From Sediminibacterium sp. (GTDB lineage Bacteria; Bacteroidota; Bacteroidia; Chitinophagales; Chitinophagaceae), in NCBI GenBank assembly GCA_035254545.1, contig DATFAP010000010.1, positions 5,286 through 69,285 on the forward strand: DNA of 64,000 bases. The letters are read 5' to 3'. A model generated the notes under the pieces. That model had not been told where the DNA came from. It saw nothing but the letters and a program-made list of their open reading frames with translations, and made no database searches. Below are positions 46,937 to 53,153 of the stretch, piece by piece. Position 1 is the stretch's first letter, and each line of letters starts with the position of its first letter. A program made the position numbers and the translations under genes.

Positions 46937-47923
46937 CTAAGCGCCTTCCAGTATTTTAATATAGTTGGCCCGCTCATACGCAGTTGGATCTGCAACATGC
47001 TGCTGGCTCAACAATCCGCGGAAGGCTTTCAGGTCTTCAAATCCCATCATGTACATCCAGTCCTGCAATTCCTTGTTCATCATCTTCAGATAAGGGATTC
47101 CATTTTTATACAGTGAAGAGGCTGTCATAACTACATCGGATCCGGCCAGTAAATATTTGATCACTTCAATGGCGCTCTGCACCCCGGTGGTGGCTGCCAG
47201 CGACATATTGGTTTTTTCATAGAGCAAAGCAGTCCATAAAAGCGGCAACCTGATTTCGTTGGAATCGCTGTAATGCAGGTCGGTTTTGATCAGCAGATCA
47301 TTGATGTCGAAATCGGGCTGGTAAAAGCGGTTGAACAATACCAGGGCATCAGCGCCGGCTCCCTGCATCCGCAGCGCCATATTGCCAATGGCGCTGAAAT
47401 AAGGATTGAGCTTTACTGCTATGGGAATCTTTACCGAGTGTTTAACAGTTTCTATGATATTGAGATATCGGTGCTCTACCTCTGCAGAAGAAACACTGAG
47501 ATCGGCGGGGATAAAGAAGATATTGATTTCGATGGCGTCGGCTCCGGCTTGTTCCATTTTTTTGGAATACTCAATCCATCCTTCGTTGCTGATCCCGTTC
47601 AGGCTGCCGATGATGGGAATTTTTACCCTTTCTTTGGCTTTACGGATATGTTCCAGGTAATCATCGCTGCCCATATTGTATTCGTCCAGTTCGGGAAAAT
47701 AATCCAATGCCTCCGGAAAGGCATTGGATGTGGTGGATAGGATACGCTTAAAACTGGCTTCTTCTTTTCTGATCTGTTCTTCAAAAAGAGAAAACATAAC
47801 AACAGCACCTGCGCCATTGTCTTCCATTTGAGCAATATTGTCTGTATGATTAGACAAGGTACAGGCGGACACAATGATGGGAGAATTCAACTCCAGGCCC
47901 ATATATGTAGCGTGTGTGTTCAT
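46937..47923 (-). CDS. dihydroorotate-dehydrogenase-like FMN (TIM-barrel) protein lacking the catalytic Cys motif
   Basis: Class-1 DHOD-like overall (GLELNSPIIVSA..., GADAIEIN...). EINIFFIPAD replaces the ELN(L/I)SCPN active-site loop. Confidence 0.75.
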   Translation of the reverse strand: MNTHATYMGLELNSPIIVSACTLSNHTDNIAQMEDNGAGAVVMFSLFEEQIRKEEASFKRILSTTSNAFPEALDYFPELDEYNMGSDDYLEHIRKAKERVKIPIIGSLNGISNEGWIEYSKKMEQAGADAIEINIFFIPADLSVSSAEVEHRYLNIIETVKHSVKIPIAVKLNPYFSAIGNMALRMQGAGADALVLFNRFYQPDFDINDLLIKTDLHYSDSNEIRLPLLWTALLYEKTNMSLAATTGVQSAIEVIKYLLAGSDVVMTASSLYKNGIPYLKMMNKELQDWMYMMGFEDLKAFRGLLSQQHVADPTAYERANYIKILEGA

Positions 47924-47938
47924 GTGCGTTTTTTATAT

Positions 47939-50900: not shown

Positions 50901-51514
50901 GCTATGATCAGTTCATCGGGAAGCATGGATTTGATCTGTTCGTTGGAGAGCAGTTCCAATTTGTTTACTTCGTGAGATGTACGGAAACCATCAAAGAAAT
51001 GTACGATGGGGATACGCGATTTTAAAGTTGCCACCTGTGCAATCAATGCAAAATCGTGTGCTTCCTGAACGCTGGCAGAACCTAACATGGCAAAGCCGGT
51101 GGTTCTTGCTGCCATCACATCCTGGTGATCGCCAAAGATCGATAATCCCTGTGCAGCCAGTGATCGTGCCGCTACATGGAATACAGTGGAAGTTAATTCT
51201 CCCGCAATTTTATACATATTGGGAAGCATCAGCATCAATCCCTGTGATGCTGTAAAAGTGGTGGTAAGTGATCCGGTTTGTAAGGCGCCGTGAACGGTAC
51301 CGGCAGCACCGGCCTCACTCTGCATTTCCATTACATCGGGAATATTCCCCCAAATATTTTGAATGCCTTTGGCACTCCACTCGTCTGCCAGTTCGGCCAT
51401 GGTAGAGGAGGGCGTGATGGGGTAAATGGCACAAACTTCGTTTACGCGGTAAGCAATATACGCTGCCGCTTCGTTACCATCAATGGTGGAGATTGTATGC
51501 TTATTATTAGACAT
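47939..51514 (-). CDS. nifJ: pyruvate:ferredoxin (flavodoxin) oxidoreductase, single-polypeptide type
   Basis: 1191 aa. N-terminal IDGNEAAAYIAYRVNEVCAIYPITPSS. Internal ferredoxin domain CIQCGNCAYVCP / CTGCNLCVEVCP. TPP motif GGDGWAYDIG. Confidence 0.93.
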   Translation of the reverse strand: MSNNKHTISTIDGNEAAAYIAYRVNEVCAIYPITPSSTMAELADEWSAKGIQNIWGNIPDVMEMQSEAGAAGTVHGALQTGSLTTTFTASQGLMLMLPNMYKIAGELTSTVFHVAARSLAAQGLSIFGDHQDVMAARTTGFAMLGSASVQEAHDFALIAQVATLKSRIPIVHFFDGFRTSHEVNKLELLSNEQIKSMLPDELIIAHRNRGLNPEHPFIRGTAQNPDVYFQGRETVNTFYNNMSDIVEEVMNDFYKMTGRKYELFQYSGAPDAESIIVVMGSGGETVDETVKALNAFGEKTGVLQVRLYRPFSLEHFIKTLPATVKSIAILDRTKESGAAGEPMYQDVLATLVEAFQKGKIKHLPKLIGGRYGLSSKEFTPAMVKAVFDELKKEDPKNGFTVGINDDVTHLSLSYDPSFKLDESEWRQGLFFGLGADGTVGANKNTIKIIGENTDLYGQGYFVYDSKKSGARTVSHLRFGPKPIRAPYLITKADFIACHQFNFTEKVEMLEFASEGATFLLNSPYSKEEVWNKLTGQVQKSIIDKKIKFYVIDATTVARDTGMNGRINTIMQTCYFALSGVLPREEAIKQIKKAIEKTYYKKGPKVIEQNFLAVDATLANMHEVKYPGTVSAADHKLMTVSDKAPDFVKNVTAVMMADHGDQLPVSMMPIDGTYPSGTTQWEKRNVSDRVAVWEPDLCIQCGNCAYVCPHSVIRAKFYHKDNLKKAPEGFKHANINARGFPETQYSLQVYLEDCTGCNLCVEVCPATNPANRSHKAINLGEKEPILEVERKNIEHFENITWNDRSKIDFSTVHGAQFLEPLFEFSGACAGCGETPYLKLLSQLFGDRLLIANATGCSSIYGGNLPTTPWTTNKDGRGPAWANSLFEDNAEFGLGMRITADKQLGIAKQYLLELKDQLGEEKVKEIINSPQTLESDIAKQQLRVQLLKEQLKTIDAPAAHHLLSVADQLVRRSVWLVGGDGWAYDIGYGGVDHALASGRNVKILVMDTEVYSNTGGQSSKSTPTAATAKFAAGGKTGGKKDMAMQAISYGNVYVARVAFGANPQQTLLAMREAEAYDGPALILAYSHCIAHGYDLKNGLDQQNKAVASGHWPLLRYNPTLRLKNQNPFVLDSPRPTIGLKDYAYNELRYKVLTLTNPEEAERLMKHAQELVNLKWKNYEELATKKASDFVPLA

Positions 51515-53153
51515 TGCTTACAGGATTAACGGGTTCAGGAATCATTTCAATGGCGTGACAGGGGCATTGCTCATAGCATACACCGCATCCGGTGCAGGCG
51601 TCCAGGTTGAACTTATAGCGGTTGCCCTTACCCAGTTTGATAATGGCATCTTCCGGGCATGCGCCAAAACAACCATCACATTCGAAGCAGTTGCCGCAAC
51701 TCAGGCAACGCTGTGCTTCAAATCTTGCTTCAGCCTCCGACAAGCCGGCTATCACTTCTCCAAAATTCTGAATTGCTTCTTCCGGTGCCTGTTTATCCTG
51801 CTCTTTTTGCGGGGCATCGGTTTTGTACCACATGTGCAGTTTACGGTAACCGGCAGTAGGATGTTTATCCGGTTTGATATACGCTGTATTTTCGAGGAAG
51901 CTGTTAATATAACGGGCTGCTTTCTTGCCGTGCCCGATTGCGATGGTGGAGCTCCTGTTTTCACCTGGCAACATATCTCCCCCGGCAAATATGCCGGAGT
52001 ATCCGGTCATGCGCTGGGCGTCAATTATCACTGTTCCATCCGGATTCACCTGAATGCCTTCCAGGTTCCGCAAAAATCCTGCATCACTTTCCTGCTTGTT
52101 GGCAATGATCAATACATCCGCATCTGTGTTTTCGAAGGTTCCGGTACCAATGGCTTTCCCTTTTTCCATCTTCATTTGCTCCAGTACCACCTGCCTGTCT
52201 TTTACCATGCTGAGTCCATGCAGCAGGTTGATTTCAACGCCTTCCGCCAGCGCGTCTTCTGTTTCATAATCGTAGGCGGGCATCATTTTTTTGTCGCCGG
52301 GGAAGTAAACCGTTACCTGGCAACCAAAACGTTTCAATATCCTGGATAGATAGAGCGCAAGTTTACCTCCTCCATATACCACTACTTTTTTCTGCATGTA
52401 TACAGATGTGTTATGGGTGGCTACATCATTAAAGAAACCAAAAGCATCTTTAATGAATACAGAACTGTCGTAAGGGATGTCTTCATCCTGGATCAATTGT
52501 GCGCCAATGCCCAGGTATACTGCATCGAAATCGCCATTTTCTTTTTCAGCAATCAGGTCGGTTACTTTATAATTCAGGCGAATTGTTACACCCATCTGCA
52601 GTATCCTGTCAATTTCTGCATCCAGTAATTCCTTGGGTAAGCGATATTCGGGAACACCCTTCCATAAAAGACCTCCGGGATGACTATCGGCTTCAAATAT
52701 TTCTACCGAGTGGCCCATCCTGGTCAGATGATAAGCGGCAGACAAACCACTGGGGCCGGATCCAACTACCAGTATTCTCTTACCGGAGGGCTTTGCCTTG
52801 AAGCGAACGGGCCATTTTTGACGAAGGGCTTCATCACCGATAAATCTTTCCACTGCGTGAATATTCACGGTATCATCTATATGGTTTCTATTGCAACCGG
52901 TTTCGCAGGGTTTCACACAAACCCTGCCCATGATGGCGGGGAAGGGATTATCTTCCACGATTTTCTGGAAAGCTTCCTGGTAATTGCCTGCCTGTGCAAA
53001 TGCCATCCATGCCTGGATATTTTCCCCCGACGGGCATGCACTGTTGCAGGGGGGCATGAAATCAACGTACACCGGTTGACGGGTTCTGAGCGGACCGGTC
53101 CCTTCTGCATGCGTGGTAAGGTCTACTGGTTTTGTAATGTCTGATGCTGACAT
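51507..53153 (-). CDS. GltD/NfnB/PreT-like NAD(P)H-dependent flavoprotein with C-terminal 2x[4Fe-4S] ferredoxin domain
   Basis: N-terminal Fe-S Cys cluster (CNSACPSGE..., VCVKPCETGCNR). Dinucleotide folds VVGSGPSGLSAAY and VVVYGGGKLA. C-terminal CLSCGNCFECDGC...CP and CTGCGVCYEQCP. 8-nt overlap with the PFOR start. Confidence 0.8.
   Translation of the reverse strand: MSASDITKPVDLTTHAEGTGPLRTRQPVYVDFMPPCNSACPSGENIQAWMAFAQAGNYQEAFQKIVEDNPFPAIMGRVCVKPCETGCNRNHIDDTVNIHAVERFIGDEALRQKWPVRFKAKPSGKRILVVGSGPSGLSAAYHLTRMGHSVEIFEADSHPGGLLWKGVPEYRLPKELLDAEIDRILQMGVTIRLNYKVTDLIAEKENGDFDAVYLGIGAQLIQDEDIPYDSSVFIKDAFGFFNDVATHNTSVYMQKKVVVYGGGKLALYLSRILKRFGCQVTVYFPGDKKMMPAYDYETEDALAEGVEINLLHGLSMVKDRQVVLEQMKMEKGKAIGTGTFENTDADVLIIANKQESDAGFLRNLEGIQVNPDGTVIIDAQRMTGYSGIFAGGDMLPGENRSSTIAIGHGKKAARYINSFLENTAYIKPDKHPTAGYRKLHMWYKTDAPQKEQDKQAPEEAIQNFGEVIAGLSEAEARFEAQRCLSCGNCFECDGCFGACPEDAIIKLGKGNRYKFNLDACTGCGVCYEQCPCHAIEMIPEPVNPVSNV

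Follow-up and report, generated by a model that had tools for sequence, protein, structure and literature searches.

The stretch of DNA considered here (the window; 64,000 nucleotides of contig DATFAP010000010.1, assembly GCA_035254545.1, from a Sediminibacterium-like genome) carries three open reading frames (ORFs) on the minus strand which encode, in this order, an iron-sulfur flavoprotein (g1, 51507..53153), a single-chain pyruvate:ferredoxin (flavodoxin) oxidoreductase (PFOR, 47939..51514), and a TIM barrel protein resembling dihydroorotate dehydrogenase (DHOD; g3, 46937..47923). The start of the PFOR gene and the stop of g1 share 8 nt (51507-51514, ATGTCTAA), and 15 nt (47924-47938) separate PFOR from g3, such that the coordinates bear out the three-gene operon described in the first-pass annotation. 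Family membership was assigned with NCBIfam models, each with its curated cut-off. The 548-residue g1, which has a DsrL-like architecture, matches NF009410/PRK12771 with 627 bits (cut-off 516), the 328-residue g3 matches NF005741/PRK07565 with 440 bits (cut-off 303), and the 1191-residue product of gene 2, correctly named PFOR at first pass, matches the long-form model TIGR02176 with 1765 bits (cut-off 911). This PFOR is the only long-form copy in the genome and contains the thiamine pyrophosphate and three Fe-S motif domains. The G+C content of the operon (45-48%) agrees with that of the genome (45.6%), which speaks against a horizontal island; a scan for promoters and terminators gave nothing usable. 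The cluster as such is known from the work of McCubbin et al. (2020, PMC7650540), who described in Propionibacterium the nifJ1 cluster, in which PFOR lies between a DHOD-like gene and one that is GltD/NfnB-like and encodes an additional ferredoxin site, reported its co-transcription and co-regulation, and postulated a bifurcating complex linked to quinol. The operon itself is therefore not a discovery. The lineage-specific points are a change in the nucleotide pocket of g1, a lineage variant seen in the Chitinophagaceae clade with the Propionibacterium sequences outside the comparison, and the presence beside the operon of a complex I devoid of NuoEFG ("headless").

The order of the three genes does not reflect chance. 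Eighty loci were selected by their similarity to g3, all of them close relatives, and this choice through g3 overstates the coupling; the order g1-PFOR-g3 was kept in 60/60 of those with enough upstream DNA, tightly so in 56. The closest loci belong to Sediminibacterium and other Chitinophagaceae. With the trio present also in the Alphaproteobacteria Methylovirgula and Phenylobacterium, the conservation in relatives on which the first-pass annotation had staked its proposal is indeed found. An evenly drawn sample of 151 genomes from the family contained PFOR in 37, g1 in 8, and g3 in 4 (nested sets). In every one of the eight (8/8) g1 immediately precedes PFOR, and g3 belongs to the full trio in 4/4, the other four of the eight g1 genomes having g1 and PFOR without g3. 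Genomes with this pair but no g3 include G315, G251, G424, G532, G383, and that of Aeromonas, whereas PFOR with g3, and no g1 in the fetched regions, was seen in four other Bacteroidota (L189, L190, L192, L193). Along these lines, a PFOR gene stands ≤1.5 kb upstream in 27 of the 30 best-scoring PRK07565 loci, and a PFOR-g3 pair is part of the microoxically induced nifJ transcription unit of Synechocystis (PMC11368403). Some loci carry RDD and ChaN genes or a Tll0287-like gene between PFOR and g3 (L098:7275-8981, L101:7216-8937, L155:4773-5372). Two loci labelled Sphingobacterium thalpophilum (L035) and Bosea thiooxidans (L090) have operons of the Chitinophagaceae type and are probably mislabelled or misbinned metagenome-assembled genomes. 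Apparent fusions of PFOR with g3 (among them P0273, P0282, P0290, and P0304, besides many partial ones) were set aside as probable frameshift artefacts, nearly all being singletons of scattered length.

The flavoprotein g1 combines a GltD/NfnB core and two core [4Fe-4S] sites with an FAD domain, a second Rossmann domain, a linker, and a C-terminal 2x[4Fe-4S] domain. Its AlphaFold model (pLDDT 90.6) finds the best fold matches in StnA/NfnA (TMq 0.79) and NfnB (TMq 0.65); all Fe-S ligands and FAD motifs are conserved, and the core retains the Arg that is conserved in the Y/F-R-L-P motif. The GltD/NfnB-like nature and the C-terminal ferredoxin domain had been recognized at first pass, but the Fe-S pair then called N-terminal is circularly permuted: in an ortholog of 53% identity, the segment with the equivalents of C483/C486 aligns to NfnB residues 14-43, i.e. 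the segment with which NfnB starts has been relocated in g1 to about residues 460-487. By this alignment, the distal core cluster most likely takes C483/C486 as its remaining, permuted ligands, and C489-C530 make up the separate 2x[4Fe-4S] domain (ligand numbering from PMC7596348). The region coding for both (51564..51707, minus strand) is 95.7% identical within the clade, with a ratio of nonsynonymous to synonymous substitution rates (dN/dS) of 0.008. A role of g1 as small subunit of glutamate synthase was rejected, since g1 stays under the cut-offs of the GltD models and the genome lacks GltB, save for a 20.7-bit fragment. The genome (99.99% complete) has neither a match to NfnA (NF004862) nor a second GltD and, because all three are absent, offers g1 no other client.

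In a quick tree with SH-aLRT support only, g1 falls into a clade (support 99) separate from DsrL, PreT, and the fusions of DHOD-like and GltD-like modules, and the members with known context adjoin genes of 2-oxoacid oxidoreductases. Relatives of g1 occupy the PorD slot in the order porC-[g1]-porA-porB (L157, L158) or follow porC-porA-porB (L169), and g1-like modules are fused to PorC (P0135, P0142, P0154, P0171) as well as to IorA (P0150, P0183). Together with P0403, the latter fusions of an IorA-type subunit are candidates for an indolepyruvate:NAD(P)+ oxidoreductase. The tethered C-terminal ferredoxin and the domain order Fd - FAD/NAD(P) - linker - Fd are shared with DsrL, the NAD(P)H:acceptor oxidoreductase of rDsrAB, whose activity was demonstrated experimentally (PMC7596348). 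The authors of that study noted homologs tied to pyruvate/ketoisovalerate oxidoreductase genes and excluded them from DsrL. With its gene overlapping the PFOR start, g1 has precisely this linkage; it differs from DsrL furthermore by an identity of only about 31-35%, its separate clade, its PFOR partner, and pocket changes that go beyond the YRR motif. A second precedent is the 2-oxoglutarate:NADP+ oxidoreductase (KGOR) of Azoarcus evansii, which has a GltD-family subunit according to the passage of PMC10134865 that cites Ebenau-Jehle 2003 (PMID 14526024). As in KGOR, where a 2-oxoacid oxidoreductase is made NADP-linked by such a subunit, g1 is a GltD-family protein genetically tied to a 2-oxoacid oxidoreductase, and KGOR thus provides a precedent for coupling PFOR to NAD(P). 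KGOR is reportedly of the multi-subunit KorAB type, specific for NADP, and devoid of a DHOD-like partner. In the pyruvate:NADP+ oxidoreductase (PNO) of Euglena, PFOR is fused to a cytochrome P450 reductase-type module; the concept of wiring PFOR to pyridine nucleotide is shared, although this module is unrelated to g1. Judged by these comparisons, g1 appears to work like DsrL or the flavoprotein subunit of KGOR without being a DsrL, and very probably serves as a dedicated electron outlet for its PFOR.

The nucleotide site of g1 departs from the family at three places, all on the minus strand. Residues 261-268 (52350..52373) form a second-Rossmann loop GGGKLALY instead of GGGNTAMD, with GGGKLA(L/M)Y in 61/63 clade members; residues 284-286 (52296..52304) read FPG where the NADP-phosphate-binding YRR motif is expected, the 63 Chitinophagaceae-type g1 sequences having F-x-G at this place and YRR being absent from the listed motif variants; and residues 351-354 (52092..52103) are ANKQ where relatives carry A-x-G-Q, the Gly being replaced by Lys or Arg in nearly all clade members (mostly A-N-K/R-Q). 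Most orthologs outside the clade keep all three motifs, while the YRR position is variable also in Phenylobacterium and L167. The three replacements fall together on the stem of the clade (support 100, stem length 0.34). Between the clade and outside orthologs the second Rossmann domain retains 34% identity, where the Fe-S, FAD, and ferredoxin domains retain 51-70%; within the clade its dN/dS is 0.067 (17 close pairs), similar to that of the FAD domain. On the evidence of these rates, the nucleotide pocket has been rebuilt and then held under purifying selection, and is not decaying. In DsrL and NfnB, YRR stands for NADP specificity, and its loss marks the use of NAD in DsrL-1 (PMC7596348). 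With FPG, g1 lacks this signature of NADP-specific GltD/NfnB-type subunits. NADP+ is consequently an unlikely acceptor in the Chitinophagaceae lineage, YRR being gone; since the motif is replaced as in the NAD-specific DsrL-1, NAD+ would be the more likely of the two, but its assignment stays uncertain.

Taken together, these observations suggest, with about an even chance in our estimation, a low-oxygen pyruvate-oxidation operon in which electrons pass from PFOR via g1 to NAD+, and in which g3 is an independent, non-pyrimidine accessory. PFOR, assigned by sequence to a family of established activity, would convert pyruvate and CoA to acetyl-CoA and CO2. The C-terminal ferredoxin domain of g1 would take over the electrons from the distal cluster of PFOR, replacing free ferredoxin, and the two core [4Fe-4S] clusters would relay them to FAD and the pyridine nucleotide; by analogy with DsrL and the Azoarcus KGOR we infer these transfer steps, as well as any physical complex between the proteins. 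The third protein, g3, would be a widespread accessory of PFOR that is separate from g1; most plausibly, it carries electrons on a flavin or acts as their sink, or it serves as a binding partner without catalysis. The first-pass annotation had proposed that the flanking proteins wire PFOR to NAD(P)+. For g1 as the outlet, this agrees with the invariable adjacency in the family sample, the fusions to subunits of 2-oxoacid oxidoreductases, and the DsrL and KGOR precedents; NADP+ as the acceptor is made unlikely by the loss of YRR. A number of points nevertheless weigh against the NAD+-linked route. The changes in g1 exceed YRR: its Rossmann loop has other residues in place of Asn-Thr and Asp, and A-x-G-Q no longer has its Gly, whereas NAD-type, Chlorobium-like DsrL sequences retain both N-x-A-M-D and this Gly. 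The loop Asp, by analogy with Glu201 of glutathione reductase, helps to hold the nicotinamide, and because it is lost together with the A-x-G-Q Gly and YRR, g1 may bind no pyridine nucleotide at all. Furthermore, PFOR needs no g1 outlet in a genome with a free YfhL ferredoxin and the adjacent headless complex I, and PDH E1 is at hand for NAD-linked pyruvate oxidation. A search for proteins that join g1 to a long PFOR found none, which is weak evidence, and the role suggested for g3 is reached by exclusion.

Best placed among the alternatives, if rather unlikely, is the possibility that g1 of the Chitinophagaceae no longer uses NAD(P) and acts as a flavin/Fe-S adaptor, passing PFOR electrons elsewhere, for example to the adjacent NuoEFG-less complex I, to quinone, or to a small anion that would be held as substrate by the Lys/Arg residues gained in the clade. 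The joint replacement of three nucleotide-site motifs on one stem, and a second Rossmann domain far from its outside orthologs yet strongly constrained within the clade, would be in line with such a switch; on the other hand, g1 keeps the G-x-G-x-x-A pattern and the fold. The headless complex I itself (nuoA-B-C-D-H-I-J-K-L-M-N, 11 subunits; 36843..46572, plus strand) converges on the PFOR operon, most of its subunits being named from sequence and NuoC by Pfam. The sole NuoF-type match of the genome is located in a second nuo operon, complete with nuoEFG, on contig C7. Of the genomes with PFOR, 35/37 have headless-type nuoD, vs 21/114 of those without, a co-occurrence for which the Fisher p-value overstates the case, the genomes being kin; in 16 genomes this nuoD is at most 16 kb away from PFOR, and the same type is near g3 in 30/44 long loci. 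A route from pyruvate via ferredoxin to an 11-subunit complex I has been proposed for Desulfitobacterium (PMC11238625), which would lend weight to complex I as the acceptor. The g1-linked PFORs, however, form one clade (69-94% identity), to which the unlinked PFORs of the family are 55-57% identical, and four of the unlinked ones examined are divergent from a ferredoxin-korA-korB-nuoA cluster. Because PFORs without g1 or g3, beside a free ferredoxin gene, hold the nuo link equally, it belongs to PFOR of both clades and not to g1 or g3. More far-reaching, and doubtful in our view, is the notion that the pocket was rebuilt for a non-NAD(P) acceptor, such that g1, PFOR, and the stripped DHOD barrel would together make a new kind of module through which pyruvate feeds in electrons, perhaps for the NuoEFG-less complex I next to it.

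The barrel protein g3 (model pLDDT 85) has the fold of DHOD and dihydropyrimidine dehydrogenase (DPD; TMq about 0.7), the DPD barrel being its best match. The first-pass annotation is thus confirmed as to the DHOD-like barrel; the likeness to PreA then claimed is lost with a score of 65 bits against a cut-off of 335, a DHO_dh Pfam domain as the only domain, without a C-terminal ferredoxin domain, and the missing catalytic Cys. The latter belongs to the N-x-S-C-P loop, to which residues 132-139 of g3 (EINIFFIP; 47507..47530, minus strand) are aligned, with no equivalents of Ser, Cys, and Asn132. This Cys is catalytic in DHOD and DPD, and is kept in PyrD1B, PreA, and 33/34 of the DHOD-GltD fusions; g3 has Phe instead, and Phe or Tyr is found in 83/83 close orthologs. 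Altogether, measured against class 1 DHOD, g3 is devoid of equivalents to Lys43 (the flavin Lys), the Asn67 motif, Ser129, catalytic Cys130, Asn132, and Ser194 (Arg instead), most of them substrate-site residues in PMC12060061. It retains those of Asn127, Lys164, and Asn193, at the putative flavin site, and N134, K171, N198, and G247 are invariant. The Lys43 equivalent is missing from all sequences that are linked to PFOR or closely related to these (110/110), whereas every stand-alone PRK07565 protein (8/8) and every fusion (34/34) has it; the PFOR-linked branch is thus, in terms of sequence, a further-stripped subfamily of PRK07565. An atlas search with g3 returned its own family only, and a complex prediction with PFOR residues 425-1090 (score 0.00) gave no verdict and is evidence for neither side. 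The genome has no PF00258 flavodoxin, which would be compatible with a flavin-carrier role of g3.

In the first-pass annotation, g1 and g3 were taken as the two halves of a DPD-like module around PFOR, i.e. a wire NAD(P)H-FAD-4x[4Fe-4S]-FMN in an obligate, possibly bifurcating three-subunit complex. We regard this as improbable. The two proteins do hold jointly the domain inventory of DPD (E. coli PreT/PreA, pig DPD; TMq about 0.66 for the g1 core), the trio is complete wherever the family sample has g3, and it extends to Methylovirgula, Phenylobacterium, and Propionibacterium. In the operon, however, the ferredoxin domain sits on the GltD-like protein and not on the barrel, g3 has lost the catalytic Cys and most substrate residues, and the genes travel independently, each being found beside PFOR without the other and with unrelated genes (RDD/ChaN, Tll0287) sometimes between PFOR and g3. 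Fusions of about 865 aa that unite DHOD-like, GltD-like, and ferredoxin modules (P0237, P0324-P0370) exist and show that a single chain can hold such modules. They keep, however, the Ser-Cys-Pro loop and the Lys that g3 lost, and the quick tree does not place the GltD part of these fusions as sister to g1, by which they are not the direct origin of g1 and g3. The core of g1 has the NfnB/StnA fold of the NfnAB, SudAB, and StnABC systems, but an NfnA or StnB-like partner is absent from operon and genome, and nothing supports the bifurcation put forward as an alternative at first pass. The reading of the operon as a split DPD is accordingly weak. The fusions themselves, with an intact Ser-Cys-Pro-His loop and no Asn67 motif (L171:10001-12592; named members in Desulfobacteraceae and Latescibacterota), are candidates for a DPD-like reductase. 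An ordinary pyrimidine function, with g3 as an anaerobic dihydroorotate dehydrogenase or g1 and g3 as a dihydropyrimidine dehydrogenase co-regulated with PFOR at low oxygen, is highly improbable, as surmised at first pass, for the DHO_dh hit, database names like 'dihydroorotate dehydrogenase (fumarate)', and the three retained residues of g3 are set against its missing catalytic and substrate residues, a quinone PyrD in the genome, no dihydropyrimidinase over cut-off there, and no pyr or pyd genes next to the operon in the 64-kb window.

Away from PFOR, PRK07565 genes have yggS, nfnAB, or an operon for a Hox-type hydrogenase as neighbours; one ends a Hox-type NiFe hydrogenase operon in L166 and L195, another follows nfnA-nfnB in L162. 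Two tandem paralogs in L191 and L192 (after PFOR in L192) hint at a heterodimer. In L200, L202, L207, and L210, PFOR is divergent from ferredoxin-korA-korB, and nuoA-nuoB-like genes follow in L200, L202, and L210, where the genes of the headless complex I are thus preceded by those for both 2-oxoacid:ferredoxin oxidoreductases and a ferredoxin. Genes for the pyruvate-yielding enzymes tryptophanase and tyrosine phenol-lyase recur near PFOR (L154, L155, L203, L211, L214), as does ppdK in L205. The genome under study also encodes KorA, KorB, and a membrane-bound, uptake-type NiFe hydrogenase cluster; acetate kinase was not found in it. Directly 3' of nuoN, a 116-aa ORF (46580-46930, plus strand) without Pfam or NCBIfam match is conserved in many Chitinophagaceae loci and may encode a protein accessory to the headless complex I. 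Divergent from the operon, on the plus strand, are genes for a membrane protein that on inspection looks like a cation/proton antiporter, with no family hit (53342-54562), and for a YdiJ-like FAD/Fe-S oxidoreductase, below cut-off (54595-57525), both linked to the operon in close relatives only.

PRK12771 and PRK07565 are large families whose database names derive from glutamate synthase and dihydroorotate dehydrogenase; in the literature searched, no functional test of either as a partner was found. The linkage of PFOR to the headless complex I points to an electron donor for the 11-subunit enzyme in Bacteroidota, and YRR-type versus remodelled g1 provides a clean natural comparison for cofactor specificity. 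Should g1 link PFOR to NAD+, Chitinophagaceae that are nominally aerobic would be able to make NADH from pyruvate at low oxygen without ferredoxin, in parallel to KGOR and the PNO of Euglena.

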